From assembly GCA_044225365.1 (NCBI GenBank), contig JBGAIQ010000057.1, positions 1-34,851 on the forward strand: a stretch of DNA of 34,851 nt, read 5' to 3'. This document shows, piece after piece, positions 322 through 18,667 of the stretch (position 1 is its first letter; each line of letters begins with the position of its first letter). The position numbers and the translations under genes were made by a program. The notes beneath the pieces are model-generated. The model had not been told where the DNA came from and searched no databases. It saw only the letters and a list, made by a program, of their open reading frames with translations. Source of the DNA: Planctomycetota bacterium. Its GTDB lineage: Bacteria > Planctomycetota > B15-G4 > JADJEK01.

Positions 322-444
322 GCGAGGAGGGCGCGGGCTCGCCGCCTTCGCGCGAGCGATCCTTTCTTTTTCCCTACGATTCTCGGTGACGCCGAAATCG
401 CGAACCGGATCGACCAGGGCATGAACCCCTGGAGGTATCTGGTC

Positions 445-2100: not shown

Positions 2101-5079
2101 TCACTTCCCGGAAGCAGAAACGTCGATCTCGGCCGTCGTTCCCGCAGCGAGCGTGATCGTGCCGGAGGCGAGGAGGGGCGGGTCGAGTTGCGCAAATTCA
2201 TATTTGCCGCTGTAGTGATCACCGAACAGCTCGTAGCGAAACGTGCCTGGGAGGACCTCGAAACTCTCCGAGCGATCTTTCCACTGGAGCCTCGTTGGGG
2301 CGAGGTCGATCCACTGATCGTGGATGCGCGAAATCTCGTCGGCTGCATCGACGGGCACGAGATGCAAGCTGGGGCGTCGGGACCATAACGAGTATTCGAG
2401 GCCGCGTAGGTGAATCGTGGCGGGCCGTGTTATCTCGAGATCGACGGTAATGATGCCGCCGTTACGTGCGTCGATCTGAACCTCACCGAGTGCGTCGGGC
2501 GCCTCGAACCGTAATCGGAGTTCGCTTGATGGAACAGACACGAGCTCGAAATCTGAGCGGCCCTCGAGCGCCATCGGCCATGGAGGTGTGATGTGTCCCA
2601 CGCCATCCGACGCGAGCGGAACGATCCATCCTTGCTTCAGGATCTCCGCGAACTCGGCCCCGTCGAAGCCGTGGGCGACGATCCGGCATTTCACCGTCGC
2701 GGGAATTGCAATTGGCAGGTCGAAGTGGAGCTTCGTGTCGCCGGGCTTGACGTCGAAGTCGAGCGATTGCGTCGACAAACCTTCTTCCGTGTCGACTTCG
2801 ATCGTCCAGGTCCCGACGCGTGCTCGGTCGATCTGAACTTGCCCTTTCCTACCGGTGGCGACGATGACCGCTTCGGAACTGATCCGTTTCGGAGTCTTGT
2901 CGTCACGGTTGCGTGGAAAGACTTGCGCGTGGCGGATGGTGTAGGGTTTACGGCTTTCTGAATCGAGCACGTCGATCGTTACGTTGGCGACGCCAATCGG
3001 CAGTCGTTCGCCAATGATACGTAGATCATGCTGATCTCCGGTGTCGCACTCGAACGTGACTCGTCCACTACGCCACAGAGAATCGCCGCCAGGCAAGTCG
3101 ACGACTAGCGTGCGGCCCCCCGCTACAGCATGTGCGTGGAAGCGGCCTTGCTCGTCGCTCGAAACTGAAAGTTGTGTACCGCTCGCGTCGAATAGACCCC
3201 GAATCGAGGCGTCAGGTATTGGCTGTCCATTCGCGTCGACGACGATTCCGCCTACAAGTTGTAGTGCGACCGATTTGCTATCGAGCGATTCCGTCGTGCC
3301 CCGCGCCGACAGGGTCACTCGTTGGCTCCGAAGTGCGGCTGCCGGGCCGTGATCGATTCGAACGGTCGTCCGCGACCGGTCGGATTCGACAACGATCAGA
3401 ACGTCCCAGTTACAAGGCAAGATGTTGAATCGAACGAGTCCTCGAGCATCCGACGTTCGTCGAAAGTCTGGGATGAGTCGAGGATCGGAAGCTGACAACT
3501 CAGTGAACTCCGAAGGAAAGTCCATGGTTGGCACCGCCGCGACCCGGACTCCCGAGATTGGTTTGCCTTGCTCGTCGAGTACCTCGATCTCGACAGGTGA
3601 GTTTGGGTAGAGACAGACGCTCGCTTTGCTGGAGTCGATTCCCGCCGAACTGGTGATTCTCGTCGCACCGCTGTCACGATCAGAGAGAGCCAGTATCATA
3701 TGCATGTCGTCGCTATTACTTCGGACATGTTCGATCGTGAATTTTCCGTTCCTGTCGGTCGCTCCAACGGGCCGTGCGGCATCGAGGATGTGCGGCCACC
3801 GCGGCTTGGAGAAATGGTCAAATAGATAGATCCGTGCACCTGCGATCGGCAGTTGCGAAATATCGTGCGCATATCCGTGAACGGTCGCCCCTCGCTCGAG
3901 CCGCACGTCTCCAAGGTCGATGCCTTCCCGAAGCGCAATCGTCCGGCCCGGAAACGCGATCTGTCGGTATAACGGCGCGTAGTCGTGACTAATAACGCGG
4001 ACCTCGGGATTCGAATCGATGATCTCGCTCAGGACGTCGAATCGGCCATCCGAGTCGGTTCGGGGGGCGGAATCCGAGAGATTCAAGTCGCTGTCCAACG
4101 TGCGAATATCGACCGTCGCGCCGGCGACCGGAGTGAGTGTCGCTCCGTCGAGCACTCGTCCGCGATAGTGGATTCGGTGATCCGGCGCGGCGGGCGGAAC
4201 CGCATCGCGAGTGGTCGGCGTCGCGGTCTCGGCGGGCGGAATGGGATCGTTCGCGAGCTGCGGCGCTTCGGCGACCCGGCCCGCGGCATCGACATCATGC
4301 GAAGGGCTGCTCAACATGAGCTTTGCCGCGACGAACCAGCCCGCGAGGAGGACGAGAACACCGGCGACGAGTTTCTTCCACATCAGCCACGATCCGATCG
4401 CGAGAGGGGTGAGCGACGCCGATGAGACGAGCCCCGGCTTCTGGATGCGGGTGAGAAGGCGACCGCGAAGGCCCTGGATCGCTCGTCGTTCGAGTCGGCT
4501 TCGAACGAAGGCGGGAAACGCCGCGAGCAGCCCGTGCGGCAGGAGGCGGCGCACGCGATCGAGGGCGCGATGAAAATGGACCCGCAAGAGGACCGGCGTG
4601 CGGCCCCCGTGAATCGAGCCCTCGTCGACGGGTCGTCGCCGCGCGTCGAGGATCTCGCGATAGGGTGAGGGCAGGTCCGCGATCGCCATCGCGACGGCCG
4701 CGCGCTCTTCGAGATCGATCAGCGCCTCGAGTTGATTCGGCTCGACGGTGACGACGGGAACACCGACGCTCGTCGCTCGCGCAGCCCGTCGCGCGGCGTT
4801 CTTCGCGTGCATCGCCAGGATGCCGACGAGCCACGGCAGAAGGGGTCGCGCAGGATCGAACACTCGAGCGCGCTCGATCGCCGTCACGTACGTGGCCTGG
4901 ATCAAGTCTTCGGCGTCGCCGCGTCCCCGCGCGATCCGCCGCGCGACGCGCATCAGCAAGGGCGCCGTGGCGTCGTAGACGGCGGCGAAAGCGGACGTAT
5001 CGCCCGTCGCCGCAAAGCGCGAGAAGAGCGCTTCGATCGCGTCGGCGGGGAGGCTCGGGAGCTTCGGAACGTCGTCCAT
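2101..5079 (-). CDS. ECF sigma factor-TM-carboxypeptidase regulatory-like repeat fusion, copy 1 (992 aa)
   Basis: Sigma2 DAEDLIQATYVTA..FDP..PWLVGI; sigma4 LPSPYRE..FHRAL; MWKK plus hydrophobic helix; repeated GRVxD..G.P..GA.V..TD..GRF units. Confidence 0.9.
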   Translation of the reverse strand: MDDVPKLPSLPADAIEALFSRFAATGDTSAFAAVYDATAPLLMRVARRIARGRGDAEDLIQATYVTAIERARVFDPARPLLPWLVGILAMHAKNAARRAARATSVGVPVVTVEPNQLEALIDLEERAAVAMAIADLPSPYREILDARRRPVDEGSIHGGRTPVLLRVHFHRALDRVRRLLPHGLLAAFPAFVRSRLERRAIQGLRGRLLTRIQKPGLVSSASLTPLAIGSWLMWKKLVAGVLVLLAGWFVAAKLMLSSPSHDVDAAGRVAEAPQLANDPIPPAETATPTTRDAVPPAAPDHRIHYRGRVLDGATLTPVAGATVDIRTLDSDLNLSDSAPRTDSDGRFDVLSEIIDSNPEVRVISHDYAPLYRQIAFPGRTIALREGIDLGDVRLERGATVHGYAHDISQLPIAGARIYLFDHFSKPRWPHILDAARPVGATDRNGKFTIEHVRSNSDDMHMILALSDRDSGATRITSSAGIDSSKASVCLYPNSPVEIEVLDEQGKPISGVRVAAVPTMDFPSEFTELSASDPRLIPDFRRTSDARGLVRFNILPCNWDVLIVVESDRSRTTVRIDHGPAAALRSQRVTLSARGTTESLDSKSVALQLVGGIVVDANGQPIPDASIRGLFDASGTQLSVSSDEQGRFHAHAVAGGRTLVVDLPGGDSLWRSGRVTFECDTGDQHDLRIIGERLPIGVANVTIDVLDSESRKPYTIRHAQVFPRNRDDKTPKRISSEAVIVATGRKGQVQIDRARVGTWTIEVDTEEGLSTQSLDFDVKPGDTKLHFDLPIAIPATVKCRIVAHGFDGAEFAEILKQGWIVPLASDGVGHITPPWPMALEGRSDFELVSVPSSELRLRFEAPDALGEVQIDARNGGIITVDLEITRPATIHLRGLEYSLWSRRPSLHLVPVDAADEISRIHDQWIDLAPTRLQWKDRSESFEVLPGTFRYELFGDHYSGKYEFAQLDPPLLASGTITLAAGTTAEIDVSASGK

Positions 5080-5087
5080 CGCGTTCC

Positions 5088-5113
5088 ATTGTCGCGAGTC
5101 CGCGTCCGGTTAC
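5088..5113 (-). promoter_or_regulatory. Conserved ECF-type promoter-like motif GTAAC-N15-GACAAT
   Basis: Minus strand reads GTAACcggacgcggactcgcGACAAT, then 8 nt to ATG 5079. Same layout upstream of three paralogs. Confidence 0.7.
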
Positions 5114-5141
5114 GGCTCTCCTCGAAATTTCCGCGCGACGA

Positions 5142-8100
5142 TCACTTCGCGGCAGGCAGCTCGAGGTCGAACGTCTCGCCCGGAACGACCGTCAACGATC
5201 CGGTCGCCACGATGGGGAGCGGGTCCGAGCCTCCGGCACTGGAGTTCAGGAACCCGCGCAGGAGCTCGTAACGCCATTCGCCGGCCGCCAGCGCAAAGGC
5301 GTGCTCCTCGGCGACTCGATCGGGAAACACGATCGATCCCCAGGAATCGAGATGGGCGTCATGGACCGAGATGAAATGGATCGACAGCCCCGCATCCGAT
5401 TTCGTGGTGCCGGCGCGCAAGTGAACGGTGCCGAAGCGAGACGCGTGGATCTCGACTTCGAGTTCTCCTCCCGCCGTGGCGTCGACGAATCCGTCACCGA
5501 TGAGTTCCGGCGAAGAAAGATGGAATCGCACAGGCCGCGGCGGAACCTGGGTGAACCGGAATTCCGTCGCCCCACGAAGATCGAATCGAGTCGGCTCGAA
5601 GTCGTTCGTCTCGCCGCCGAGACCGTCCGCATCGCTGCCACGAATCCACGCGAAACGAAGCGCTCCGGCCAGGGACTGGGCGTCGAAACCGGAACCCACG
5701 ACGCGTCCGTGGACGATAGCCGGGCGTGATACTTCGACATCGAAGACGCGCTCCTCGTCGGTGGGGGCTATCTCGAAGTCCTTCACCACGGTGGGTCGCG
5801 CGTCGCATTTCACCTCGGCGCGCCAACGCCCCGCTCGCCATCGCTCGAGCGTGATCCTTCCCTTCTCGAGTCGTGGCGGCGGTCCGAACACCTGACCCGG
5901 AATGCGAACGAGCTTAGACTCGGGCGCCGAACGGTCCTGGATCGGGTAGACCCACGCGGAAACTAGATCGAGCGGTTCCCCGCTCGCCCCATCGAAGATC
6001 CTCAGTTGGACCCGAGCGAGGCCCGCGTCGACGCGTAGTGCGATCACGCGTACGTTGGTGGAGCCGCACTTCACGTCCGATTCGAGCTGAGACTGGACCC
6101 AGTTCCAACGCTCGCCGGGGAGGTTGATGATCAGTCTTCCTTCGCCCGCTGTCGCATGGGAGATTCGGAATCGACCGCTTTCATCCGTCCGAATCGCGTC
6201 GGCATAGAGCGTACGATCAGGAAGACGCATCGCTACCGACGCAGCGGATACGGGCGCCCCACGATCGTCGACGACGATTCCTTCGACCGGCGCCGCAGGC
6301 GTTGCGACGAGCACGACGTCCCGTGCATCGCGATCGACGGGTACGTCGACCGAGGTCGGAATTCGGGCGACCCCCGGCGCGCCGACGCAGAGCTGAGTGA
6401 TATCGCCCCCAACGACGTGTTCGAGTCGGAACGCGCCATCGGGCGCACTCGTGACTTCGTCCACTTTGGGACTGAGATCGGATTGATAGAGGTCGTACCG
6501 CTCGACTCGGACTCCGCCGATGCCGCGTCCAGCGGAATCGACGACTCGGCCGCTGACAGCGAACTCGCGAAGGCGAGGCATCACGAGGCGCCGATTCGTC
6601 GACTGCGTCGCCGACAGCCGAATCGCCGACGCGGTCGCGCGCAAGTGTCCTTCGCGGCCCGCGGAGAGAGCGCATTCCATTTCCAGTGGCAGAGCGGTGA
6701 ATCGCACGCGGCCTGCGGCGTCGGTGGCCTTGCAGAACTCACTTTCCGTCTCGCACGACCAGAGCATGGTGGGTCGGTCCGTTTCGCTCCGCCAGACGAA
6801 GGGTGGTTCGAGCGGACCTGCCGAGACGAATGTGCCCTCCAGGGGCGCGCCCGAATCGTCGACGAGTTCCACCTCGAGCGTGGCGGCTCGGAAGAGTCGG
6901 ATCTCGAGTCCTTCGACGTGGGCCTTTCCTACCGGGATATTCAGATCGCAGCCGCCGCAGCCTCGCGGGGATTCGGCGAAGAGCCGGAATCGGTAGAGGC
7001 CGCCTTCGCGCACGTGCTCGATCACGAACGTGCCGTCCGATTCGGTGACGCCGACTTCCCGGGAGATCGTCGGGTAGAACGCCCACTGCATGTCTCCTTC
7101 GTCGTGGAGGAACAGACGAGCCCCTTCGACGGAGCGACCCTCGGCGTCGAGGACTCTGCCATGCAATGTCGCCCCGGAGCCGATCGAAAGGTCGCCGAGA
7201 TCGACTCCGTCGCGTCGCGCCGCGGATTCCTCGGCGACGTCGAATTCGCGGCGGGCTTCCGCATGGTCCTTGGAGCGTGCGTAGAGCGTGCCGTGTCCGT
7301 CGAAACGCGGGCGCGCGATGAGGAAGCGACCATCGGGCTGCGTCAGGACGGCGTCCTTGGGGAGCGCTGAATTCGGGAATCGATGCGTCGAATCGACGAA
7401 GACCGTCGCCGCCGCGACCGGTGCTCCGCTCGTCGCATCGATGATCCGTCCGCGGAAGAGCACCGGCGGCTCCGACGCTACTGCGCTCGGCGACGGTTCG
7501 ATGCGGTTGCGTTCGATCGCCGTCGCCTCTGCGGTCGTCGCGATCGGCTCGCTCGCGTTCTGGTCCGTGAGAGCCGGAGAGGTCCTTCGATCCCTGGCTT
7601 CCGATAGGGAATCGGGGCGATCGCCGCGAAGGACCCACGCACCGGCGACGATCAGGAGGACGCATGCGGCCATCGCCGCGATCTTCTTTCCCATCAGGAT
7701 TCCCCCGACCATGGTGACGGAAGTGGGCGCGACGATTCGTGCGCCTGGTTCGAAGCGGGTGAGCAGGATGCGGCGTACGCCATCGATCGTGTGCCGATCG
7801 TGACGCGCATCGATGAGTCGCGGGATCACGCCGAACAAGCTCTGCGGCAGGAGACGGCGAAGGAGGCGAATCGCGCGATGGAAGCCAACCCGCAGATGAA
7901 CCGGCGTGATTCCCGTTTTGCGTGGCACGCTCGTTGATGCGTCGATGCGCGCTTCCAGGATTTCGCGGTAGGGCCTCGGCAGTTCGTCGATCGCGAGGGC
8001 AACGGCCGCGCGCTCCTCCAGTTCGATGAGCGAGGCGAGCTGAGTTGCATCCGAACTGTTCGAACTGTTCGGGCCGTTCGGCGAACGCGCGAGGCCGTAC

Positions 8101-8414
8101 ACGTCGGGTGCACGCCTCGCGGCACGCGCGGCGTTCTTCGCATGACCGGCGAGGATTCCGATGAGCCACGGAAGGAGCGCGCGAGTCGGATCGAAATCGA
8201 GGGCCCGCTCGATCGCCGTCACGAAGGTCGCCTGGATCAGGTCGTCGGCGTCGTTGCGCTGCCTCGCAATGCGGCGGGCGACGGCGAGAAGCGCGGGGGC
8301 CGTGCGGTCGTACACGAGAGCGAAGGACTCGCCGTCGCCTCGCATCGCGAAGCGGATCCAGAGGGATTCGACCGAGTCGGCGACCTCGTCACGACGCCTT
8401 AGGGAAGAGGGCAT
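5142..8414 (-). CDS. ECF sigma factor-TM-carboxypeptidase regulatory-like repeat fusion, copy 2 (~1090 aa)
   Basis: Same architecture (DADDLIQATFVTAIERA; MGKK plus TM). Start reset to ATG 8414 by alignment with paralogs and the upstream motif. Confidence 0.9.
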   Translation of the reverse strand: MPSSLRRRDEVADSVESLWIRFAMRGDGESFALVYDRTAPALLAVARRIARQRNDADDLIQATFVTAIERALDFDPTRALLPWLIGILAGHAKNAARAARRAPDVYGLARSPNGPNSSNSSDATQLASLIELEERAAVALAIDELPRPYREILEARIDASTSVPRKTGITPVHLRVGFHRAIRLLRRLLPQSLFGVIPRLIDARHDRHTIDGVRRILLTRFEPGARIVAPTSVTMVGGILMGKKIAAMAACVLLIVAGAWVLRGDRPDSLSEARDRRTSPALTDQNASEPIATTAEATAIERNRIEPSPSAVASEPPVLFRGRIIDATSGAPVAAATVFVDSTHRFPNSALPKDAVLTQPDGRFLIARPRFDGHGTLYARSKDHAEARREFDVAEESAARRDGVDLGDLSIGSGATLHGRVLDAEGRSVEGARLFLHDEGDMQWAFYPTISREVGVTESDGTFVIEHVREGGLYRFRLFAESPRGCGGCDLNIPVGKAHVEGLEIRLFRAATLEVELVDDSGAPLEGTFVSAGPLEPPFVWRSETDRPTMLWSCETESEFCKATDAAGRVRFTALPLEMECALSAGREGHLRATASAIRLSATQSTNRRLVMPRLREFAVSGRVVDSAGRGIGGVRVERYDLYQSDLSPKVDEVTSAPDGAFRLEHVVGGDITQLCVGAPGVARIPTSVDVPVDRDARDVVLVATPAAPVEGIVVDDRGAPVSAASVAMRLPDRTLYADAIRTDESGRFRISHATAGEGRLIINLPGERWNWVQSQLESDVKCGSTNVRVIALRVDAGLARVQLRIFDGASGEPLDLVSAWVYPIQDRSAPESKLVRIPGQVFGPPPRLEKGRITLERWRAGRWRAEVKCDARPTVVKDFEIAPTDEERVFDVEVSRPAIVHGRVVGSGFDAQSLAGALRFAWIRGSDADGLGGETNDFEPTRFDLRGATEFRFTQVPPRPVRFHLSSPELIGDGFVDATAGGELEVEIHASRFGTVHLRAGTTKSDAGLSIHFISVHDAHLDSWGSIVFPDRVAEEHAFALAAGEWRYELLRGFLNSSAGGSDPLPIVATGSLTVVPGETFDLELPAAK

Positions 8415-8421
8415 GTGGAGT

Positions 8422-8447
8422 ATTGTCACGACACGCGGGGGTGTTAC
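8422..8447 (-). promoter_or_regulatory. Conserved promoter-like motif GTAAC-N15-GACAAT
   Basis: GTAACacccccgcgtgtcgtGACAAT, then 7 nt to ATG 8414. Confidence 0.7.
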
Positions 8448-8522
8448 CGCGTGTCGCCTTTGGAATGCGATAATTCCTGAAAGCCCTCCGGGTCCGGCGG
8501 GCACTCCATTCCCGTGAGACCG

Positions 8523-11500
8523 ATGGATCCCAACCCGCGCCCCGATCCTCGCTCGTCCGAGAGGGCGGCGTCGTTCGACGTCGAGGCGCTCCTTCGCGAG
8601 CGGGCCTGGCTCGTGGGGCTCGCTCGCTCGCTCGGGAGCGACGACGCTACGGCCGAGGATCTCGTGCAGGAGGCGCTCGTCCAGACGATCGCGCGGCCGC
8701 CGCGCGCGCTCGGATCGCCAAGGGCGTTCCTCGCCACCGTCCTGCGCCGCGTTGCACTCAAGATCGGTCGCGGGGAATCGCGACGGCGCGCACGCGAGGT
8801 CGCGAGCGCGCGGAGCGAGAGGCTGCCCGATTCGGGAACACTCGCCGCAGAAGTCGAAGCGCAGCGCGCGGTCGTCGAAGCGGTGCTCGCCCTCGATGAA
8901 CCGTATCGCCGCACGGTGATGCTCCGCTACTTCCGCGGCGTCGAGACGAAGACGATCGCGGCGGAAGAGGGCGTCGCCGCCGCGACGATCGATACGCGGC
9001 TCCACCGCGCGATCGGAAAACTGCGAGCACGCCTCGACAAGCGATTCGGCGATCGCGCGGCCTGGCGCGCGCCCCTGCTCCTCGCTGCCGCCGCGCTCGC
9101 CGTCGACAAGGCCGCCGTCGCGGGCACGATCGTGAAGAGCGCGGCAAGTGCATCGAAATGGTCGAGCCCCGCAGGGCTTGCAGGGAGTGGTGGGGTGAGT
9201 ACGTTCGGGAAGTCCCTCGTCGTCGGATTGGTTCTCGTCGTCGCGTCGGGTCTCGGCGTCCTGACGTGGCGTCGCGCTCACGACGAGAGCCGATCCACAC
9301 TCACGACCCTGGCCACCGACGATTCGACCGCGCGCTCCTTGGACCGTCGCGACGACGTCGCCGGTTCGAGCGCTCCTCGAGCGCCTTTTCCTGTCCCGGA
9401 GCGGGAGAGCGTGAAGTCGAATGACGGCGCGTCGACGCCCGCAGGGGATGCAGCGGACGGTGGCATCATCGACCTCGTCGATGCGGGCGGGAGGCCGATT
9501 TCGGGCGCGTCACTCGTGTTCCTCGATGCCCCACAAGACGCGGCCGCGATCCTGAAGACCGACGAATCGGGCCACGTCTCGTTCCCGCGCAACGCGCTCG
9601 GCTCCCGCCGACTCGTCGTGGCCGCGGCGAGTCGCGCTCCGCGAATCGTCGACTGCGTGTTGCGGCTCGGCGAGAACCGCATCGAGATCGACGGCGGCTT
9701 CGCCCTCGCCGGCCGCGTGCGTGTCAACGGGCACGAGCCACGGTCCCCGCTTCGGCTCTCGTTCGAGTACGCGGCGGGCTTTCCGGAGTTCGCTACGGAC
9801 TCGAGCGAGCTTCCTACCGGGATTGCGAACCTCCTGCAATCGTTGACGACAGAGACGGCAAGTGATGGATCGTTCGAGTTCGGGGGCCTCCCCTCCGATA
9901 CGCATGGGGAAGTGCGATTTGATCCTTGGGCTTACTACGTAAATGAGGATAGTAAACAGTCATTGGTCGTAGCGTCGCCAGCGCAAAACGTCGTGATAGA
10001 TCTCGATGAGTATCAGCGGATCAAGGGAATCGTTATCGACTCGCAGGGTCGTGGTGTCGCAGCCGCGTCTGTTGTGATTCAGGTCCTTGAGTCCGGGTTG
10101 AACGTTGTCACGATCCGACGTACTACTACCGACACAGGAGAATTCGATGCCCACCTCGGCTACCACCTCGATCGACATCGAAGGTACACAGGGCAAGTCG
10201 CAATCGAGGACCCGGAGCGCATTCGTCATCGGCAACTCGATTTCAGTATAGTCGAAGAAAGCGTTATTGATCTCGGCTCCATTGCGCTTGCGGATTCTGT
10301 TTACGTAGAATTCCAAGTGGTCGATGAAAACGGCAACCCATTATCCGGTGTGATCGGCTATCGCCGTCAGGGATTGGGTGCTCCAAGTAAGCCCACCGAC
10401 GAATCCGGTCTCGGTGGACTCACGATCGCTAAAAATACCGATGAAAGAGATCGGTGCTGGTTTGCAACGCCCGGCCGCGAGATCGTCGAATCGACACTTG
10501 CCGCCGGGCAAGTAACGCGCGTCATTATGCAGCGTGCTTCCGAGATAGAACTTTCTCTAGCGCGCAGGGACGGCGCAGATGTGGGGACTTGTTTTGCCGA
10601 GTTGGTCACGCTCGGCGAACGTCCCTTAGCAGATCCAAGCAAAGACCTGCCTCCGCCAGCACTGGAAGGGCAGTCCGAAGTGTTTCGAGGTGCCCATTGC
10701 ACACGGTGTTCGATGGAAGATGGAAATGCGTGTTTCGGATTCGAGGTCACCTCGGGGATCTCTTGGCTGCGCCGAATCCGCCCAAATGTTCGATTCGATC
10801 TTGTAATTCGAAGTACAGCAGATGTTGAGTTGTATCGAAGTCGAGATCTCATCCTTGATCCGGGAGAAACGCGCAAAGTCTTCGTTACGATCGATACCGT
10901 CGGGCGTGCGCTTTTCGTACATGTGCTGGACCCTTCAGGCAATCCTGTTTGCGATGCGGAAGTCGTTATCGAGCGAGGAATCGATGTTAGCTCGCCCAGG
11001 GGATTGACAGATACTTCCGGAACAGTCGCCTTCCTCGACGTCGCGGAGTCGATCGCAATTGTGAGCGTTCGTGCGCGCGGATATCCCGTATCGAAGAAGG
11101 CCATCGATGTCGCGACACTGAGCGGCCTGCCGCTCGAGATTCGACTGGAGGCGGGAAGAGGCGTGGAGCTCTCAATAGTAGACGTGAACGGCCGGGCGAT
11201 CGAGGACGGCGCGGCAGTGCGCGGCGGGATCGATTCTGAGGACGACCAGGAGTTCGTCGTACTCGACACACGGTCCCGCGAACTCGGCGGCGGCCGCTAC
11301 GCGTTCGATGAACTCCCGGCGACGGGGCGACTGCGGTTCGAGGTCACGCTCGGCGGAGTCGTCTATTCGCTCGTTCACGACTCACCCGCGCCGACGGCGA
11401 CGCTCGTCGTGCCCGCGCAGGGACGCGTGAGGTTGAGTTGGGACCTCGATCTGAAGACGAACTACCTGCCGTTCTACCGGTTCGTCCCGATCGGCGGCGG

Positions 11501-11705
11501 AGAGCCGATCGTGCTCGACGTCGGCTCGTTCGATCCGCGCGAAGCCCACGGCAGCGACGTGATCCCGGAGTTCCGTCCAGGGCGATATCGCGTCGAGATG
11601 AGCGTGAAGGAAGACGACGCGCCCGAGCGGCGGCTCGCGGTGTCCGTCGCAGAGATCGAGGTGATCGCGGGGAAGACCAGTGAGGTCGTCTTGGTGGCGC
11701 CCTGA
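8523..11705 (+). CDS. ECF sigma factor-TM-carboxypeptidase regulatory-like repeat fusion, copy 3 (different ECF subtype, intact sigma4)
   Basis: Sigma2 LLRERAWLVGLARSL..TAEDLVQEA; canonical sigma4 LDEPYRRTVMLRYFRG..TIAAEEGVAAATIDTRLHRA; TM SLVVGLVLVVASGLGVL; beta-sandwich repeats. Start ATG 8523 (GTG 8514 possible). Confidence 0.9.
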   Translation: MDPNPRPDPRSSERAASFDVEALLRERAWLVGLARSLGSDDATAEDLVQEALVQTIARPPRALGSPRAFLATVLRRVALKIGRGESRRRAREVASARSERLPDSGTLAAEVEAQRAVVEAVLALDEPYRRTVMLRYFRGVETKTIAAEEGVAAATIDTRLHRAIGKLRARLDKRFGDRAAWRAPLLLAAAALAVDKAAVAGTIVKSAASASKWSSPAGLAGSGGVSTFGKSLVVGLVLVVASGLGVLTWRRAHDESRSTLTTLATDDSTARSLDRRDDVAGSSAPRAPFPVPERESVKSNDGASTPAGDAADGGIIDLVDAGGRPISGASLVFLDAPQDAAAILKTDESGHVSFPRNALGSRRLVVAAASRAPRIVDCVLRLGENRIEIDGGFALAGRVRVNGHEPRSPLRLSFEYAAGFPEFATDSSELPTGIANLLQSLTTETASDGSFEFGGLPSDTHGEVRFDPWAYYVNEDSKQSLVVASPAQNVVIDLDEYQRIKGIVIDSQGRGVAAASVVIQVLESGLNVVTIRRTTTDTGEFDAHLGYHLDRHRRYTGQVAIEDPERIRHRQLDFSIVEESVIDLGSIALADSVYVEFQVVDENGNPLSGVIGYRRQGLGAPSKPTDESGLGGLTIAKNTDERDRCWFATPGREIVESTLAAGQVTRVIMQRASEIELSLARRDGADVGTCFAELVTLGERPLADPSKDLPPPALEGQSEVFRGAHCTRCSMEDGNACFGFEVTSGISWLRRIRPNVRFDLVIRSTADVELYRSRDLILDPGETRKVFVTIDTVGRALFVHVLDPSGNPVCDAEVVIERGIDVSSPRGLTDTSGTVAFLDVAESIAIVSVRARGYPVSKKAIDVATLSGLPLEIRLEAGRGVELSIVDVNGRAIEDGAAVRGGIDSEDDQEFVVLDTRSRELGGGRYAFDELPATGRLRFEVTLGGVVYSLVHDSPAPTATLVVPAQGRVRLSWDLDLKTNYLPFYRFVPIGGGEPIVLDVGSFDPREAHGSDVIPEFRPGRYRVEMSVKEDDAPERRLAVSVAEIEVIAGKTSEVVLVAP

Positions 11706-11731
11706 ACGAGGAGAGGCCTTGCGCTACGACA

Positions 11732-14700
11732 TCAACGAGGTGTCGGCAATGCGAGATCCACGGTATTTCCCGCGCGAACGACGATTCGACCGGATTGCGT
11801 GGTGTCGACGTCCGGCGAGGCGCCGCGCGACGCCCGCGTAAGAGTCCAATTCCAGATTCCGGGCGCGAGCGGAACGGCGTCGCTCGTTGACTTGCGCTCC
11901 GCCGTACCGAAGCCGATCCACTTCGCGCCGCCGCCCTCGCGCGTGAGTCGCACCTCGAGGGTGCCCGTCGGATACTGATCAGCGCCCAGCACGCGCAAGC
12001 TCCCCGGCGCCTGCGCGACGATCTCGAACACGTTCTCGCCCCCGGCGCGCACCTCGATGTCGCGTTGTCCGAGTAGCACCTCACTCTCGAAAGCGAGCAC
12101 GAGCGCGCCGAGCGGGACGCTCTCGAACGCGAATTCCGCCTTGCCGCGCAGCGGATTCCATGCGGGCTTCGCGTCGGGTTCATCGATTCCGTCGAGCCGC
12201 AGACAGCGCACGTTCCCGCTCGCGAGCGCGGCTTGCAGTGTCGCGGCATCGACGCCCTCGCCGGCGACGATCCGCCCACGGATGTTCGTGCCATGCTGCA
12301 TGACGACGCGCACTCGAACGAGCTTGTCGGTCGGCGCGACGTCGAAGTCGACGCAGGTGGAGGGATACCCGTCGCAATCGACACGCGCTCGCTTGGCGCC
12401 GGCCTGCACGGACGAGAATCGCGCAAAGCCCACTCCGCGCTCGTCGGCACTCGTCAACGATCGCGGCGAGCCCGGCAACGCGGGCCGATCACCGTAATAC
12501 GCGGCCTTCGCCTCGAGCGGAGTGTCCGTCGCGCCGTCGAGGATCTCGAGTTCGACCTTCGCCGCGGAGTCGCGAATTCGCTGTCCCACGACTCGCACCG
12601 AGGCATCGCCTCCATGGACGACGAGGTCGAGCGATCGCGCCACCCATGAATGCTCACCAGGGAGGTCGACCTGCATCGCCCACTCGCCCGCTGTCGCATT
12701 GGGAAATCGAAAGGACCCGTCGGATTCCGTGCGCGGGCGGTCCATCGCTACCCATTCGTCGGTGCGGGGGCGATGGAGGATCACGGACGCGTTCTCGACC
12801 GGCGCGCCGGAATCGTCGACGACGATTCCCGAGACCGGCGTCGCGCGCCTTGCGACGAGAACGACGCCATCGAGATCGCGATCCGCCGGCACGGTCACCT
12901 CGATCGGACGGGCCGAGATTCCCTCGGCTTCGAGGTGAAGGGCCGTCGCGACTTCGCCCTCGACTCCGTCCAAAAGGAATCGTCCTGTTGCGTCCGTCGT
13001 CGCCTCGCCTTCGTTCGCTTTCTCGAACACGCGCTGCGAGTAGCGATGAACCACGACGCCCGCGACGGGTTTGCCCTCTTCGTCCTCGACCCGGCCTCGA
13101 ATCGCGAAGAGTCGCAGCGTTCGCAGAACGGCTCTCTCATGGACAGGAGTCGTCGTCGATTCGACAGCGTCCACATACCACCGGAAGTAGCCATCCTTCG
13201 CGACCACGATCGCGTGCGGAAATCCCGCGGGCAACGCATGGAACTCCGCATGACCACGCGGGTCGGTCCGAACGCGAAACGTCGCGACGCGTTCGCGGCC
13301 GGGCGCGAGCCAGAGCGCACGCACGGGGCGATCGCCGCGCTTCAGCACTTCCTCGAGGCTCCAGTCGAACGCAACGTAGGGATCGCGAATCGGCAATGCA
13401 TCGACCGTCGCGCCTTCGACGGGCTTGCCCGTTTCGTCGACGACATCGACCTCGATCGTTCCCGGCGGGGCAAGCTGTATGTCCTCGTCGATGACGCGGC
13501 GCGCGTCCGCGAGCACGTCGAGCGACAACGCGCCGCAACCTCGGGACGAGATCGCATAGATCTGCCACTTGAAGCCGCCGCTCGGGACCACGTGCGGAAT
13601 CGAATAGGATCCGTCCGCATTCGACTCTCCAACCGGCCGAGCTTGGTCGAGGAAGAACTTCGGATACGACATGGGGTGGGCGTGGAGAAACATCTTCGCT
13701 CCCGCGACCGGAGCGCCGCTCGCGTCGGTCACGCGTCCACGAATCGTTGCGCCGCGCACGAGTTCGATATCACCGAGATTCGAGCCATCCCGGTCGATTC
13801 CCTTGCTCGGCGTATCGACCGATCGCCACCACACGGCGTAGTCGTCGCTCTCGATTCGCAACTGCATCGGAAAGTGAGCGTTCTCGATCGTGAAGCGCCC
13901 GCTCGAGTCCGAGCGGGCCGCGTCGGCGGGGATTGCGAAGGGATCGATGTCGGGCGCGCACGGAAAGCACGCGGCATTTGCGATGGGCGAACCGGTTTCG
14001 GCGTCGAGGATACGGCCGACGGCTCGCGGGCCGAGATGGAGTGCCACGGGCCGAGCGACGCCGTCGAGGGGGCTCGCGGCGATCGCGGCGCGGCTCGGTC
14101 CAGAATCGGGCGCCGTTCCGACCTCGACCTTCGGTTCGTCGAGTTGCACATTCGTCGGAGAAGTGAGCTCGGAACGGTTGCTGGTCCATGCGAAACGGAC
14201 AGCTAGGAGCAGAGCGACGACCACCCCCAAGGCGGCGAACTTCTTCAACGACGTGCCCACGACGAGGCCTCCGATCGAAACAGACGAGAGCGATGCCGCG
14301 GACTTCCCGAGCGGCGGGGCGGCGAGTCTTCCGACGACGCGCCGCCGTACGGCGGCTAGCGCGCGGCGATCGAGCGCCGACGCGAACAGGATTCCGAGGA
14401 GCGAGGGCGGCAGCAGGCGGCGAAGCCGTTGAACGGCGCGATGCAGCCGCATGCGCAACGCGCTCTCGCCGACGCCGGCGCGATCGCCGCGATCCCAGCG
14501 ATCCCAGCGATCCCAGCGATCCATGCTGGCGAGGCGCGACAGGACCTCGCGGCGATACGGGTCGGGCAGATCTCGGATCGCCCCCGCGACCGCGGCGCGA
14601 CGCTCCAAATCGACGAGACCTTCGAGCAGGTGCGGATCGCGCGCGATCTCGGGCGCGGGTCGGCCCTGCTCGCGCGCTTTGCGCCGGGCCGCGTTCTTCG

Positions 14701-14947
14701 CATGACCCGCGAGGATCCCGACGAGCCATGCCATCAACGAGCGGCTCGGGTCGAACGCGCTCGCGCGCTCGATTGCGGTCAGGAACGTCGCCTGGACGAG
14801 GTCGTCCGCATCCGCGCGCCGCTGCCCGATCCGCCGCGCCACGGCGAGCAGCGCCGGCGCCGCGCGATCGAACACCCTCGCGAACGCGGCGGCATCGCCG
14901 TGATCGCTGAATCGGGCGAAGAGCGACTCGAGACTCTCGGGTTCCAT
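11732..14947 (-). CDS. ECF sigma factor-TM-carboxypeptidase regulatory-like repeat fusion, copy 4 (1071 aa)
   Basis: DADDLVQATFLTAIERA..FDPSR; LKKF plus TM; repeated GRVxD units; closely parallels copies 1, 2 and 5. Confidence 0.9.
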   Translation of the reverse strand: MEPESLESLFARFSDHGDAAAFARVFDRAAPALLAVARRIGQRRADADDLVQATFLTAIERASAFDPSRSLMAWLVGILAGHAKNAARRKAREQGRPAPEIARDPHLLEGLVDLERRAAVAGAIRDLPDPYRREVLSRLASMDRWDRWDRWDRGDRAGVGESALRMRLHRAVQRLRRLLPPSLLGILFASALDRRALAAVRRRVVGRLAAPPLGKSAASLSSVSIGGLVVGTSLKKFAALGVVVALLLAVRFAWTSNRSELTSPTNVQLDEPKVEVGTAPDSGPSRAAIAASPLDGVARPVALHLGPRAVGRILDAETGSPIANAACFPCAPDIDPFAIPADAARSDSSGRFTIENAHFPMQLRIESDDYAVWWRSVDTPSKGIDRDGSNLGDIELVRGATIRGRVTDASGAPVAGAKMFLHAHPMSYPKFFLDQARPVGESNADGSYSIPHVVPSGGFKWQIYAISSRGCGALSLDVLADARRVIDEDIQLAPPGTIEVDVVDETGKPVEGATVDALPIRDPYVAFDWSLEEVLKRGDRPVRALWLAPGRERVATFRVRTDPRGHAEFHALPAGFPHAIVVAKDGYFRWYVDAVESTTTPVHERAVLRTLRLFAIRGRVEDEEGKPVAGVVVHRYSQRVFEKANEGEATTDATGRFLLDGVEGEVATALHLEAEGISARPIEVTVPADRDLDGVVLVARRATPVSGIVVDDSGAPVENASVILHRPRTDEWVAMDRPRTESDGSFRFPNATAGEWAMQVDLPGEHSWVARSLDLVVHGGDASVRVVGQRIRDSAAKVELEILDGATDTPLEAKAAYYGDRPALPGSPRSLTSADERGVGFARFSSVQAGAKRARVDCDGYPSTCVDFDVAPTDKLVRVRVVMQHGTNIRGRIVAGEGVDAATLQAALASGNVRCLRLDGIDEPDAKPAWNPLRGKAEFAFESVPLGALVLAFESEVLLGQRDIEVRAGGENVFEIVAQAPGSLRVLGADQYPTGTLEVRLTREGGGAKWIGFGTAERKSTSDAVPLAPGIWNWTLTRASRGASPDVDTTQSGRIVVRAGNTVDLALPTPR
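14480..14524. repeat. In-frame 9-bp tandem repeat (GCGATCCCA x3 plus two degenerate flanking units) encoding DRWDRWDRWDRGDR inside sigma4 of copy 4
   Basis: Read directly; exact units at 14489-14515. Confidence 0.9.
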
Positions 14948-14956
14948 CGAGAGTGC

Positions 14957-14982
14957 ATTGTCGCGAGTTCCCTCGGCGTCAC
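14957..14982 (-). promoter_or_regulatory. Conserved promoter-like motif GTGAC-N15-GACAAT
   Basis: GTGACgccgagggaactcgcGACAAT, then 9 nt to ATG 14947. Confidence 0.7.
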
Positions 14983-15010
14983 CGAGAAAACGCGGGGCGA
15001 TCGCGACGAT

Positions 15011-18000
15011 TCAATGCGGCGGCGCGGGCAACGCGATCTTCGACGTCTCCCCGGCGCGAACTTCGATTGTGCCCTCCGCGATCGAGGGCAATTGGAAGAG
15101 ATCGGATGGAGCCGCCGCACCAGGCTTCGCAAAGACGAGGCTCCAACGATAGGTTCCCGGCGCGAGCGTCGTGCTCGAGTCCCTCGCGTCTTGCCCGTTC
15201 GACCCGAGGAGGATCCAACCGTCGGCGGCGTCGTCGCAACTCAGGCGCACCAGGAGTCGGGACCGACCGAACGTCGCGGCGCCTTCCGTTTTCACGATTC
15301 CCGGACGGACCGCGTGGATCTCGACGACGCTCTCCTCGCCGGGCTGCGCCACGAGTCGGGTGCTGCCGATCAAGTTCTCGGCACTCATCTGCACGAAGAT
15401 CTCGCCGCTCGGGGCCTGGTCGAAGTGGAACTCCAGCGAACCGTTCAACTCGATGGATCCCGGCGCGAAGTCGCCGTTGTTGACGATCGCGGGGCGGTCC
15501 CTGCGGCCGCCCGTGATCGTCGCGTGGACCAACGCGGCGCGCAGTTCCTGGCGCGAGAGACCGGACGCCGTGATCGTTCCGCGCACGCGCGCAGCCGGCG
15601 CAACGAGGAGCTGGCATCGAACGAGCGTGTCGCTCGGCGCGACGTCGATGTCGAGGAATGCGACGGGGTGTCCCTCGCACCGCACGCGCAGGCGCCACGC
15701 TCCGGGCTTGCAATGCAGGATCCGTACGAGACCGCGCTCGCGTTCCGCATCCTCTCGACCCGTGCCGACATAGTCCTTCGAATCCGAGCGCGGACCGAAG
15801 AGGACTTCGATGGGATCGATCGGGAGACGAGAGACGGAATCGAGGAGCTCGACTTCGACCTGCGCGCGACCGGGCGTGTCGTGGACGACGACGAGCCGTA
15901 CGTTGCGGTCGCCGGCATCGACGTCGATCGCGGCGGTCTTGTCGACCCAGTCGCTGCGTGGCCCGGGAGCGCCGGCGGTCACGCTCCAACGGCCCGCCGT
16001 GACGTTCGAGATCGTGAAGTGGCCCTCGGCATCGGTGAACATCTTGTCTGCCGACAGATACGTTTCGCCGCGATGGGCCATCACTCCCGCATCCGGAATC
16101 GGTTTGCCGCTCTCGTCCACGACGACGCCCGCGATCGGGAGCGCCGCACTTGCCACGAGCACGAGATCGCAGAGATCATGGTCGTCCGGAACTCTCACGT
16201 GCAACGGCTGACGCGCGATGCCGGGTGCGCCGACGCAGAGATCCATCTCCTCCGCCGCTTTCATCGGGTCGAATCGAAATCGCCCCAATGCATCGCACGT
16301 CATCTCGTCGATCTTCGGTGACACGTCGCATTGATAGGTGCCGTAGCGCTCGATCATTGCACCGGGGAGCGGTCTACCGTCCGTATCAACGACCTTCCCG
16401 CCGATCGCGAACCTGTTCGCGGGAAGCAGTGTTGCCCGCAGTCGGGTCGGCTTGCCCGCTGAGAGTCGAACGACGTCCGCGAACCACGGAATGAAGTCGG
16501 TCTTGGAGGCATGCACCGCGCAGGGGAGGTCGGAGGGCAGCGCGAGGATCGTCGCATGGCCCGCGGCATCCGTCACTGCGCGCAACGGTGCGGGCAGATG
16601 CGGATCATTGGCGAGATGGAGGATGCGGGCTTCTTTCGAGTGATCGCCTGGAAACGCGGCGATCGCGAGATTGCCATAGACGAACGGCTCGACGATCGGC
16701 GCGGCGCCGATGGTGACGCCCTCGACCGGCTTGCCTACAGGATCGACGACCTCGATCTCGATCGGGCCCGACGGTGCGAGCCGCAATTCGACATCGAGCG
16801 GGTGCTCCGATCCGGGGACGACGTGGAGCAGTGCCGCAGCCGATCCTTGATTCGTGATCGCGAAGAGCCGCGAAGGGAACGCCCCGCTCGGCGGAACCTG
16901 CGCGAGTTCGAACGTGCCATCCGAAGCGGAGCGCCCGACGGAACGTGCGCGGCTTGGGAAGAACGACGACGTGTAGAGCGGTCCGTCGTAGACCAGGAGT
17001 GGAGCGTCGGGGAAGGGCTGACCCTTTTGATCGACGACGCGTCCGCGGACTGCGCCGCCACGAGGCAGACGCAGGTCGCCGACGTCGACGCCCTCGTGTC
17101 GCGCAATCGTGTCGCCGGGCCAGTCGATCCGCTGCGCGAGCGGGGCGTAATCGGCGGAGACGATGCAGGTGAAGTCGATGAGTCGGGGAACGTTCGAGAT
17201 CGTGAACCTGCCGTCCGAATCCGTTCTCACGCAGTTCGGAGGTAGCTCGAACGATCGAGGAGCGCTGCTCGAGACGAAGCACGCGGCGTTCGCGACCGGT
17301 GAGCCCGTCGCCGAATCGATCACCCGACCGCGAACCGTGAACCCCTGCGCATCGCCGATTGGAGGAAGCGCTGCATCCGTATGGGTCGCGGCCGTGATAT
17401 CGCGCGTCGAGGTAGTCGGTTCGTTCGTGGCTTCGCTCTGGGCTTCGTTCTGGGCGGGCGTCGCGATCACGGGGGCGATCGACGGGACATCGTCCCGCGA
17501 TTCCGAAGTCGCGACCTGTCGCGTGGCGATCGCAATCCAAGTCGCTGCGATCACGACGAGCACGACCGCAGCGGCGAACTTCTTCATCATGATGCCGGCT
17601 CCCAATCCTGTCGCCCCGAACGTGGCCGCGATTCCCTTCGAACCCAACGCCCGTTCGAGCACGCGAACTCGAATCTCTGCGAGGGAACGATCTCCGCGGA
17701 GCAGGATCCCTCCCGCGAACGACTCACGGGGGAGCAACTTCCGCAGGAGCGCGATCCCCCGATGGATCCGCGTGCGAAGCGTTCCCGCGTGCGCTTCGGC
17801 TTCATGATCCTTTGCGTTCCAGCGCGTCGCGACCGCGCTGCGGAACGGCTCGGGAAGCGCGTCGATGGCAGCGAGGACGGCGGTGCGTTCTTCGGCCCCG
17901 ATCATGGCTTCGAGCGGCGGGGGATCGTGAGCGATGGCGTCGTCTCGATCCGCGATCGGGGCGTTCGTGCGCCGCGCCTGGTTCTTCGCGTGATGGGCGA

Positions 18001-18235
18001 GGATGCCGATGAGCCAGGGCATGAGACGCATCTTCGAGTCGAATGTCGTCGCGCGCTCGATCGCCGTCACGAAAGTGGCCTGGACGAGGTCGTCGGCGTC
18101 GCCGCGAATTCTCGAGAGTCGCCATGCCACCGCGCGCAGCGGCGGGGCCGCGCGATCGAAGAGAGTCGCGAACGCGCCCGCGTCACCGTGATCGCGGTAA
18201 GCGACAAAGAGTGACTCGAGTGTTCGTTCGTCCAT
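15011..18235 (-). CDS. ECF sigma factor-TM-carboxypeptidase regulatory-like repeat fusion, copy 5 (~1074 aa)
   Basis: Start reset to MDERTLESLF (ATG 18235), which aligns with MEPESLESLF of copy 4. DADDLVQATFVTAIERA; MMKK plus TM. Confidence 0.9.
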   Translation of the reverse strand: MDERTLESLFVAYRDHGDAGAFATLFDRAAPPLRAVAWRLSRIRGDADDLVQATFVTAIERATTFDSKMRLMPWLIGILAHHAKNQARRTNAPIADRDDAIAHDPPPLEAMIGAEERTAVLAAIDALPEPFRSAVATRWNAKDHEAEAHAGTLRTRIHRGIALLRKLLPRESFAGGILLRGDRSLAEIRVRVLERALGSKGIAATFGATGLGAGIMMKKFAAAVVLVVIAATWIAIATRQVATSESRDDVPSIAPVIATPAQNEAQSEATNEPTTSTRDITAATHTDAALPPIGDAQGFTVRGRVIDSATGSPVANAACFVSSSAPRSFELPPNCVRTDSDGRFTISNVPRLIDFTCIVSADYAPLAQRIDWPGDTIARHEGVDVGDLRLPRGGAVRGRVVDQKGQPFPDAPLLVYDGPLYTSSFFPSRARSVGRSASDGTFELAQVPPSGAFPSRLFAITNQGSAAALLHVVPGSEHPLDVELRLAPSGPIEIEVVDPVGKPVEGVTIGAAPIVEPFVYGNLAIAAFPGDHSKEARILHLANDPHLPAPLRAVTDAAGHATILALPSDLPCAVHASKTDFIPWFADVVRLSAGKPTRLRATLLPANRFAIGGKVVDTDGRPLPGAMIERYGTYQCDVSPKIDEMTCDALGRFRFDPMKAAEEMDLCVGAPGIARQPLHVRVPDDHDLCDLVLVASAALPIAGVVVDESGKPIPDAGVMAHRGETYLSADKMFTDAEGHFTISNVTAGRWSVTAGAPGPRSDWVDKTAAIDVDAGDRNVRLVVVHDTPGRAQVEVELLDSVSRLPIDPIEVLFGPRSDSKDYVGTGREDAERERGLVRILHCKPGAWRLRVRCEGHPVAFLDIDVAPSDTLVRCQLLVAPAARVRGTITASGLSRQELRAALVHATITGGRRDRPAIVNNGDFAPGSIELNGSLEFHFDQAPSGEIFVQMSAENLIGSTRLVAQPGEESVVEIHAVRPGIVKTEGAATFGRSRLLVRLSCDDAADGWILLGSNGQDARDSSTTLAPGTYRWSLVFAKPGAAAPSDLFQLPSIAEGTIEVRAGETSKIALPAPPH

Positions 18236-18243
18236 CGCGAGGT

Positions 18244-18269
18244 ATTGTCGCGAATGCTCGGAGCGTTCC
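18244..18269 (-). promoter_or_regulatory. Conserved promoter-like motif GGAAC-N15-GACAAT
   Basis: GGAACgctccgagcattcgcGACAAT, then 8 nt to ATG 18235. Confidence 0.7.
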
Positions 18270-18290
18270 CACGATTCGAAGAAGATCGTC

Positions 18291-18455
18291 GCGGGCGGCG
18301 GCAGCTCGATGTCGGTGATCTCGCCCGCTTTCAAGTCCACGGCTCCGCAGCAGGCGACGGGCAGCCATCGCCAAGGGGTAGGGGCGTCGGTCTCAAAGGT
18401 GAAGCGGCCGGCGTAGCATTGAGATCGCATCAGTCCAAGTCGGACGTCGAGACGA
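18291..18455 (-). pseudogene. Remnant C-terminus of a sixth ECF-fusion paralog
   Basis: LDVRL..AGRFTFE..GAVDLKAGEITDIELPPPA resembles the paralog ends (GTIEVRAGETSKIALPAPPH; GSLTVVPGETFDLELPAAK) and sits at the usual ~55-63 nt tandem spacing. Confidence 0.55.
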
Positions 18456-18667
18456 GAATTCGCCCGCGCGCTTCCCGAAGGGCCGCATCCTCTTGGACTC
18501 CAGGCCCTGTGGGCGTTACGATTCCTGCGCTGAGTGGCGCCATTGAATCGAGGGATCGTCCTCTCTCGGTCTACGATCGGCCGTATCCGCTGCGAGTGCG
18601 CGAGCGCTCGTGGGGGCGGTTGCTCGAGAGGGGATGAGGACGATCGCACGTCGGAAGAGGATTCATC

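Follow-up and report, generated by a model that had tools for sequence, protein, structure and literature searches.

The window analysed here is a stretch of 34,851 nucleotides from a Planctomycetota bacterium (GTDB lineage B15-G4; JADJEK01; assembly GCA_044225365.1, contig JBGAIQ010000057.1), and from position 2101 to position 18235 it is occupied by five long, intact reading frames, g1 to g5, which encode paralogs of 992-1090 amino acids (aa). Each paralog joins a sigma factor of the extracytoplasmic function (ECF) type, one predicted transmembrane helix and a large array of beta-sandwich domains in a single polypeptide. They belong to a very large Planctomycetota family of ECF sigma receptors made as one polypeptide, and the battery is not special to this locus: the genome has 37 such genes, with several clusters among them, of which this array is one. 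Nor is the system categorically new, as fused, membrane-anchored ECFs released from the membrane are already in print, and the design of sigma factor, membrane span and CarboxypepD_reg domains is known, common in Planctomycetota and unstudied. What is new is a clade of the family with a degenerate region 4 of the sigma factor (sigma4), a conserved, near-leaderless promoter-like motif, and the scale of the expansion.

A preliminary description of this DNA had proposed the architecture from the letters alone, and it proved real by Pfam, by hydrophobicity and by AlphaFold2. Pfam matched Sigma70_r2 (PF04542) above its cut-off in all five proteins (E 3e-8 to 2e-13) and CarboxypepD_reg in several stretches of each (E 3e-19 to 8e-43), the weaker matches being to related beta-sandwich families. 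Sigma70_r4_2 was detected in g3 only (PF08281, 32.1 bits), Pfam reported no other sigma-70 region families in g1 to g5, and in the g4 model a linker of about 12 aa lies between sigma region 2 (sigma2) and sigma4 (helices 71-93 and 105-125). The sigma part is a genuine ECF fold. Its best matches in a sequence search of the PDB were CnrH, SigE and SigH, and a model of g4 aa 1-262 (102-row alignment, predicted local distance difference test (pLDDT) score of 80) retrieved SigK, SigW and AlgU first by Foldseek, followed by BldN, SigH and CnrH among solved ECF sigma factors. Sigma2 of g4 alone superposes on solved ECF region-2 structures with TM-scores of 0.83-0.91 and root-mean-square deviations of 1.2-1.8 Å, and with the general ECF model of NCBIfam, TIGR02937, g2, g3 and g4 score 44.6, 50.4 and 53.7 bits, above its cut-off of 42.9 bits. 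Sigma2 is also the most conserved region of the proteins. Within the sigma part as a whole, D49, Q52, W74 and R170 are invariant across 102 sequences.

Beyond the sigma part, a check for transmembrane helices gave one in each of the five proteins, in the form of one strong hydrophobic segment at about aa 220-262 (Kyte-Doolittle 2.1-2.5 over 19 aa); second hydrophobic peaks in g3 and g5 fall in the juxtamembrane region or in beta-rich parts. The segment is preceded by K or KK in every protein, which is consistent with an N-in orientation. Two short juxtamembrane helices carry a family-conserved R-x-L-x3-R-x2-V-L motif. The full-length AlphaFold2 model of g4 (23-row alignment, mean pLDDT 75) has a confident sigma2 and places the transmembrane helix at 235-252; residues 251-305 come out disordered and residues 309-1066 entirely as beta structure, in which we read probably about eight sandwiches. 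The disordered stalk, of about 50 aa, is rich in Pro, Ala and Ser. Ectodomain and stalk together span about 735-835 aa in the five proteins, a wider range than the 750-800 aa first given for the ectodomain. Foldseek with the whole g4 model returned generic arrays only (contactins, pilins, alpha-2-macroglobulin MG domains and SdrD), all at TM-scores below 0.3.

The family extends far beyond the window, which is one whole contig (C47) of a 6.53-Mb assembly of 103 contigs. A profile built from the sigma domains of the five copies found 68 frames in the genome, 37 of them with a tail of at least 400 aa: the five in the window and 32 elsewhere. Among these 32, a hydrophobic segment follows soon after the sigma domain in 28 (threshold 1.9), and Pfam matched CarboxypepD_reg in 30 and Sigma70_r4_2 in 29 (E <=1e-5). 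The other clusters lie on contigs C23 (three in tandem plus one), C76 (two), C33 (two) and C31 (two plus one). As a side observation, the lineage is very rich in sigma factors in general, with 107 Sigma70_r2 matches in this genome and 54-119 across eleven genomes of the same family (E <=0.001; matches, not copy numbers).

A comparison of copy number across related genomes, which the preliminary description had called for, was made in part as matches to g4: all 11 genomes searched within the same family have at least one, as do nine of 19 genomes from other families of the order, so that the protein family is not confined to the locus. In protein databases, 49 of 63 matches combine Sigma70_r2 with CarboxypepD_reg, and all named organisms among them are Planctomycetota metagenome-assembled genomes (MAGs), as are nearly all titled matches in species-representative genomes. 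With the first 300 aa of g4, 1883 representatives were found at E <=1e-10, and 130 of the best 150 are at least 700 aa long. In the ESM Atlas this combination of domains recurs in clusters of 56-2579 members, in which Planctomycetota is the commonest phylum, and the nearest clusters score 0.95-0.98 with an identical domain set. The five proteins have the features of this family, i.e., Sigma70_r2, then a single transmembrane helix, then multiple CarboxypepD_reg domains in one protein of about 800-1250 aa. They resemble the Planctomycetota clusters with Sigma70_r2, Sigma70_r4_2 and CarboxypepD_reg in domain set, length (about 760-1200 aa) and phylum; however, Sigma70_r4_2 is carried by 91-100% of the members of those clusters, and g1, g2, g4 and g5 are without it. 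We found no experimental study of a member of this CarboxypepD_reg sigma family in the literature: searches on ECF sigma factors with a carboxypeptidase regulatory domain returned just papers on type IX secretion and the like, and the string 'Carboxypep' does not occur in the main text of PMC7671368. Around 77 loci of other genomes with a sigma match, one long fusion lies within about 20 kb in 54, two in seven and three in one, which makes five in a row the largest cluster seen against a maximum of three, seen once, in a comparison limited by contig ends. At two of these 77 loci (L077 and L085) a g3-like and a g4-like fusion are divergent with adjacent starts, as are g2 and g3, which is too few to call the arrangement conserved.

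Several ECF groups bear comparison with these proteins, among them the planctomycetal group ECF57, reportedly first described by Jogler et al. in 2012. ECF57 is described as having a C-terminal extension with transmembrane helices and no anti-sigma factor, with 'release from the membrane' proposed, and the gene context of its subgroup s3 includes a carboxypeptidase regulatory-like protein (PMC7826278). The phylum, the membrane-spanning C-terminal extension and the lack of an anti-sigma factor are shared with the proteins of the window. However, ECF57 is given about two transmembrane helices and WD40 or homeodomain-like extensions where there is one transmembrane segment here, and a completely conserved cysteine pair, one in sigma2 and one in sigma4, where the sigma regions of g1 to g5 hold no cysteine. 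The same account of ECF57 reports no conserved promoter motif (PMC7826278), whereas one was found here. The five proteins were set apart from ECF57 by the group's published description. ECF52 (SCO4117 of Streptomyces coelicolor), ECF48 and ECF53 are likewise ECF sigma factors fused through transmembrane helices to an extracytoplasmic part, with proteolytic activation proposed (PMC8999054). They are actinobacterial, their extensions are reported to reach only about 400 aa, and a zinc-finger (ZAS-like) anti-sigma domain stands between sigma4 and the membrane, whereas g1 to g5 show neither a Pfam match to a domain of that kind nor a Cys or His motif.

The only fused transmembrane ECF whose activation by proteolytic release has been characterised experimentally is, in the account of a 2022 review (PMC8999054), IutY of Pseudomonas putida (ECF243), a sigma/anti-sigma hybrid in which Prc trims the periplasmic part and RseP then frees the sigma factor (PMC5411451, PMC8999054). 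IutY has the same plan of a cytoplasmic ECF sigma factor, one membrane span and a periplasmic regulatory part in one polypeptide. In IutY, however, the periplasmic part is said to be an anti-sigma domain (FecR-type) belonging to cell-surface signalling, with an outer-membrane receptor as partner, whereas Pfam matched neither an anti-sigma family nor a receptor gene here and the ectodomain consists of 735-835 aa of beta-sandwiches; it is also presented as a single 'unique' protein of P. putida (PMC5411451), against 37 copies in the present genome. Of the background on which the preliminary description had drawn, membrane-anchored planctomycete ECFs with a proposed release are in print for ECF57 (PMC7826278), and proteolysis is in print for IutY (PMC5411451, PMC8999054).

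The copies in the window differ from most of the family in sigma4. In most members this region follows the pattern LPxxYRxVLxxxLxxGxxxxEIAxxLGRxPGTVRxQLHRGLxxLRRxLP. In g1, g2, g4 and g5 the part GxxxxEIAxxLGRxPGT, which makes up the positioning helix of the helix-turn-helix and the turn, is replaced by a hydrophilic segment that differs in sequence and length in every copy; the helix before it (LPxPYRxxL) is kept, and so is the recognition helix (LRxRxHRAxxxLRRLLP). Pfam found no Sigma70_r4 or Sigma70_r4_2 in these four proteins (E <=0.01), nor in the three closest proteins from outside the window, P0002, P0064 and P0065 (E <=0.1), and the next relatives, P0066-P0069, score 1e-9 to 4e-9 for these domains. 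At the loci of the best-matching relatives (L034-L038, L040 and L042, in seven genomes, six of the same family) the helix is canonical throughout. In a FastTree phylogeny of 45 full-length proteins, for which support is SH-like only, g1, g2, g4, g5, P0002, P0064 and P0065 form one clade (support 100), within which g1 pairs with P0064 (100) and g4 and g5 group with P0002 (96). The single clade indicates that the change in sigma4 happened once, before the duplications, and the pairing of g1 with P0064 that at least the split between g1 and g2 predates the divergence from another organism. In g4 the replaced segment, which contains a tandem (DRW)n repeat, has a pLDDT below 50 in the full-length model and of about 64 in the model with the deeper alignment. 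The repeat is one unit shorter (a 9-nt deletion at 14489) in contigs X3 and X4 from two other independent sequencing runs, and is therefore length-polymorphic between strains. Over 102 sequences, the degenerate clade included, R165, L175, R176, L179 and P180 are at least 90% conserved around the invariant R170, so that the recognition helix is still under constraint.

Directly before g1, g2, g4 and g5 stands the motif G(T/G)nAC-N12-CGCGACAAT, with the variant CG(C/T)GACAAT, and 7-9 nt without a Shine-Dalgarno-like sequence separate it from the ATG. The genome has 23 instances of the form CGnGACAAT-N6-10-ATG/GTG, and of the open reading frames (ORFs) that follow them the six longest (939-1090 aa) are g1, g2, g4, g5 and two of the C23 paralogs; the remaining two C23 copies have close variants. 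The string ACN12SGCGACAAT has 39 matches in 12 genomes of the taxonomic family against five for the reversed control, and eight of 38 examined matches lie 7-10 nt before the start of a gene of the protein family, three of them in two other genera. A looser, -10-like form, GA(C/T)(A/G)A(A/T/G) at 6-10 nt before the candidate start, was found in 24 of 108 long fusions (37 in this genome and 71 from other Planctomycetota), whereas 25 of 1080 control windows taken from the interior contain it. In those 24, positions that had not been selected for are conserved as well, with G at -20 in 20, C at -16 in 19 and G at -2 in 22.

From these sequence patterns we read the motif as a putative bipartite promoter with an ECF-like AAC box. 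Given its position, transcripts would have a predicted leader of at most a few nucleotides, and they are possibly self-regulated. As C23 copies with a canonical sigma4 carry the motif too, it predates the change in sigma4. The suggestion that the paralogs converge on one promoter type gains some support for g1, g2, g4 and g5, which have near-identical L3-loop regions (FDPxRxLxxWL) in addition to the common promoter-like motif. A candidate regulon member was noted at C23:2792-2814 (locus L055), where GGGAAC-N12-GGCGACAAT stands 7 nt before the ATG of an ORF whose N-terminus is cysteine-desulfurase-like by eye, about 5 kb upstream of the C23 family cluster; the upstream neighbour of that cluster ends in CGCGESF, which we take to be a motif typical of IscA-type proteins. 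A further observation concerns the 16-mer TTCTCGGTGACGCCGA, which occurs exactly twice in the 6.5-Mb genome: its copy at 14976-14991 (-) overlaps the -35-like box before g4, and that at 380-395 (+) is separated by about 25 nt from the ATG of the downstream FG-GAP gene at 421, with no CGCGACAAT at an equal spacing after it.

We lean towards signal-dependent proteolytic release of the tethered sigma factor, which would then read G(T/G)nAC-N12-CGCGACAAT promoters, as somewhat the more probable account of how these proteins work. They would be single-pass proteins of the inner membrane with the N-terminus in and the C-terminus out, i.e., a cytoplasmic ECF-type sigma factor, juxtamembrane helices, a transmembrane helix, a stalk and about eight periplasmic transthyretin/Ig-like modules. 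The tethered sigma domain would be held away from RNA polymerase until a signal at the ectodomain led to trimming of the stalk or ectodomain, the Pro/Ala/Ser-rich stalk being a plausible first cleavage region. Intramembrane cleavage by a site-2 protease of the RseP type may then follow, and M50 site-2 protease genes are encoded in the genome. The freed fragment, predicted at about 25 kDa, would guide RNA polymerase to the motif before its own gene and those of its paralogs, giving near-leaderless mRNAs. If the proteins do work in this way, single-polypeptide transmembrane sigma factors would be a major signalling device of this planctomycete lineage, with 37 such proteins in the genome against the one example studied experimentally anywhere, IutY, that the review names (PMC8999054). 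The motif provides a defined promoter-like sequence with a predicted near-leaderless start, and the natural pair of canonical (g3 and the C23 copies) and sigma4-degenerate proteins (g1, g2, g4 and g5) bears on the need for a positioning helix in sigma4.

Several results count against this account. Four of the five copies are without a detectable sigma4 domain, their positioning helix having become a variable loop of low confidence, and its replacement puts normal -35 recognition by g1, g2, g4 and g5 in doubt. Classical ECF promoters have a spacing of 16-17 nt, and the spacing from AAC to CGAC is shorter here, at 14 nt. With the strict forms of the motif, no convincing target was found for a regulon beyond the family's own genes. 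Site-2 proteases and rhomboids were present in every control genome (M50 in all 14), so their presence says little. The fold search with the ectodomain returned only generic Ig, pilin and macroglobulin arrays, with no clue to a ligand, and the TIGR02937 scores of g1 (42.4 bits) and g5 (37.3 bits) fall just below the cut-off. Lastly, the juxtamembrane helices have low confidence (pLDDT 58-77 in the 102-row model, <50 in the full-length model), and auto-inhibition is thus only proposed.

The degenerate sigma4 raises the alternative that this clade no longer initiates transcription. Its members might instead be decoys that titrate the polymerase core or some partner of the canonical paralogs, much as PhyR binds NepR through a sigma-like domain, or the sigma part might be a mere cytoplasmic anchor of an envelope protein. 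All seven clade members are without a match to Sigma70_r4 or r4_2, the replaced segment is variable in sequence and length and in g4 consists of a strain-polymorphic repeat, and a canonical paralog, g3, lies divergent beside g2, all of which would suit such a role. However, the recognition helix and sigma2 are still conserved, intact frames of about 1000 aa have been kept through divergence to 32-38% identity, the promoter-like motif stands before all four genes, and matches of the five proteins to PhyR_sigma2 in Pfam are far below the cut-off. We regard this alternative as unlikely. Judged on the sequences, it is a speculative proposal, to which we give a lower probability still, that by dropping the positioning helix and keeping the recognition helix the clade gained either a new, sigma2-led promoter reading or a role as anchored pseudo-sigma decoys. 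If the clade still initiates, it might read promoters mainly via sigma2 and the long invariant CGCGACAAT element across a 12-nt spacer that is unusually short, which would be a mode of ECF promoter recognition not yet described; if it does not, membrane-anchored pseudo-sigma decoys might tune about 30 canonical paralogs. Either outcome, if true, would be new for ECF biology.

It is also conceivable that the sigma factor acts while anchored, as ToxR and CadC do, recruiting RNA polymerase at the membrane with the ectodomain modulating it by conformation or oligomerisation and with no cleavage. No protease gene or cleavage motif linked to the array was found by Pfam in the window, the conserved helices that span roughly 50 aa from sigma4 to the membrane could give reach and pass on a signal, and near-leaderless genes would suit coupled local expression. 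Against this, a holoenzyme within about 50 aa of the membrane would presumably be sterically restricted. Furthermore, the 2022 review gives proteolysis as the mode of activation for fused transmembrane ECFs (PMC8999054), and we met no membrane-bound sigma factor that works without release in the literature consulted. Activity in the anchored state appears distinctly improbable to us.

The five proteins align collinearly over their whole length. High similarity of the sigma2 regions, as originally described, holds among g1, g2, g4 and g5 (53-65% identity) but not for g3, which has only 26-36% identity to them; the divergence of the outer domains was confirmed, at 27-38% identity in the ectodomain among the same four copies, and the linker plus sigma4 lies between at 39-51%. 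Throughout its regions g3 shows 17-36% identity to the other copies, about 21% overall, and is a distant paralog. That the array is expanding is doubtful: identity among the copies is down to 32-38%, and in the tree g1 has P0064, from outside the window, as its partner rather than g2, which shows that the duplications are old. Pinto and da Fonseca report duplicated planctomycetal ECFs with unrelated C-terminal extensions (PMC7671368), whereas here the entire protein, including the extension, has been duplicated and is still collinear.

The reading of the array as a product of misassembly, or of its genes as decaying pseudogenes, is hardly credible, even though the organism is uncultured, its assembly is split into 103 contigs and one homolog among the relatives has an in-frame stop: all five frames are intact, the longest exact word common to any two copies is 21 nt, and contigs from runs of three other studies match pieces of the window at 95-99% identity, one of them (14790-15154) spanning the junction of g5 and g4. 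Apparent 'joints' in these other-run contigs have sides of just 20-22 nt and are unreliable; the contigs themselves are short, of low depth, and cover the window in part. DNA identity among the copies, at 67-75%, is mostly confined to the sigma2 part. This check of misassembly, which had been suggested at the outset, makes misassembly of the array unlikely, given the short exact words and the independent contigs.

Coordinates of the genes and their features are collected in Table 1. The five paralogs do adjoin one another, as a tandem battery would, but their orientation is four plus one, with g3 divergent from g2 and convergent with g4. The intergenic gaps of 62, 99, 26 and 63 bp (g1/g2, g2/g3, g3/g4 and g4/g5) are too short for a separate anti-sigma gene, the absence of which had been remarked on before and was upheld: Pfam matched neither anti-sigma nor receptor families in g1 to g5, in the flanking gene on either side or in the 18 further ORFs of the window with at least 150 aa, this being the size range of the scan. 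The only matches among those 18 were to an aminotransferase, to a GFO/IDH/MocA oxidoreductase and to a TIM barrel like that of xylose isomerase.

Table 1. Positions of the five fusion genes, the promoter-like motifs before four of them, and features of g4 in the window
Feature	Position	Strand	Description	Basis
g1	2101..5079	-	992 aa; sigma2 aa 35-101, atypical sigma4, transmembrane segment aa 238-256, beta-sandwich ectodomain	ORF, Pfam, hydrophobicity
Promoter-like motif g1	5088..5114	-	CGTAAC-N12-CGCGACAAT, 8 nt before ATG	
g2	5142..8414	-	1090 aa from ATG at 8414; g1-like architecture; transmembrane segment aa 244-262	ORF, Pfam, hydrophobicity
Promoter-like motif g2	8422..8448	-	GGTAAC-N12-CGTGACAAT, 7 nt before ATG	
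g3	8514..11705	+	1063 aa, GTG start; sigma2 aa 29-88 and Sigma70_r4_2 aa 118-170 (both canonical), transmembrane segment aa 234-252	ORF, Pfam, hydrophobicity
g4	11732..14947	-	1071 aa; sigma2 aa 26-92, atypical sigma4, transmembrane segment aa 237-255, stalk about aa 256-305, all-beta aa 309-1066	ORF, Pfam, AlphaFold2
g4 extracytoplasmic part (predicted)	11735..14032	-	aa 306-1071; about eight predicted beta-sandwich modules, three CarboxypepD_reg stretches	Pfam, AlphaFold2, Foldseek
g4 transmembrane segment	14183..14239	-	aa 237-255	hydrophobicity, AlphaFold2
9-bp tandem repeat, (DRW)n	14480..14524	-	g4 aa 142-156, 4.8 copies, at the place of the first sigma4 helix-turn-helix helix	TRF
Promoter-like motif g4	14957..14983	-	GGTGAC-N12-CGCGACAAT, 9 nt before ATG	
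g5	15011..18235	-	1074 aa from ATG at 18235; g1-like architecture; transmembrane segment aa 220-238	ORF, Pfam, hydrophobicity
Promoter-like motif g5	18244..18270	-	GGGAAC-N12-CGCGACAAT, 8 nt before ATG	

The open frames of g2 and g5 run on upstream of the starts given in Table 1, where similarity to the paralogs begins and just before which the conserved motif stands. The end of the array had accordingly been placed at 18455, which is not borne out: it reflects the open frame of g5 running on upstream, whereas both homology and the promoter-like motif put the start at 18235. High G+C content produces long spurious frames at this locus, among them the upstream extensions of g2 and g5 (5142-9281 and 15011-18769, both -) and antisense frames over g4 and g5 (12650-14206 and 14429-16321, both +), and the database gene call for g5 (P0003, 1139 aa) includes a spurious N-terminal extension of 65 aa. 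The array is flanked on both sides by FG-GAP/VCBS-type repeat proteins with hydrophobic N-termini, at 421-2046 (+) and 18668-21220 (+), the Pfam matches of the flanking genes being FG-GAP_2 at 6e-39 and FG-GAP_3 at 1e-98.

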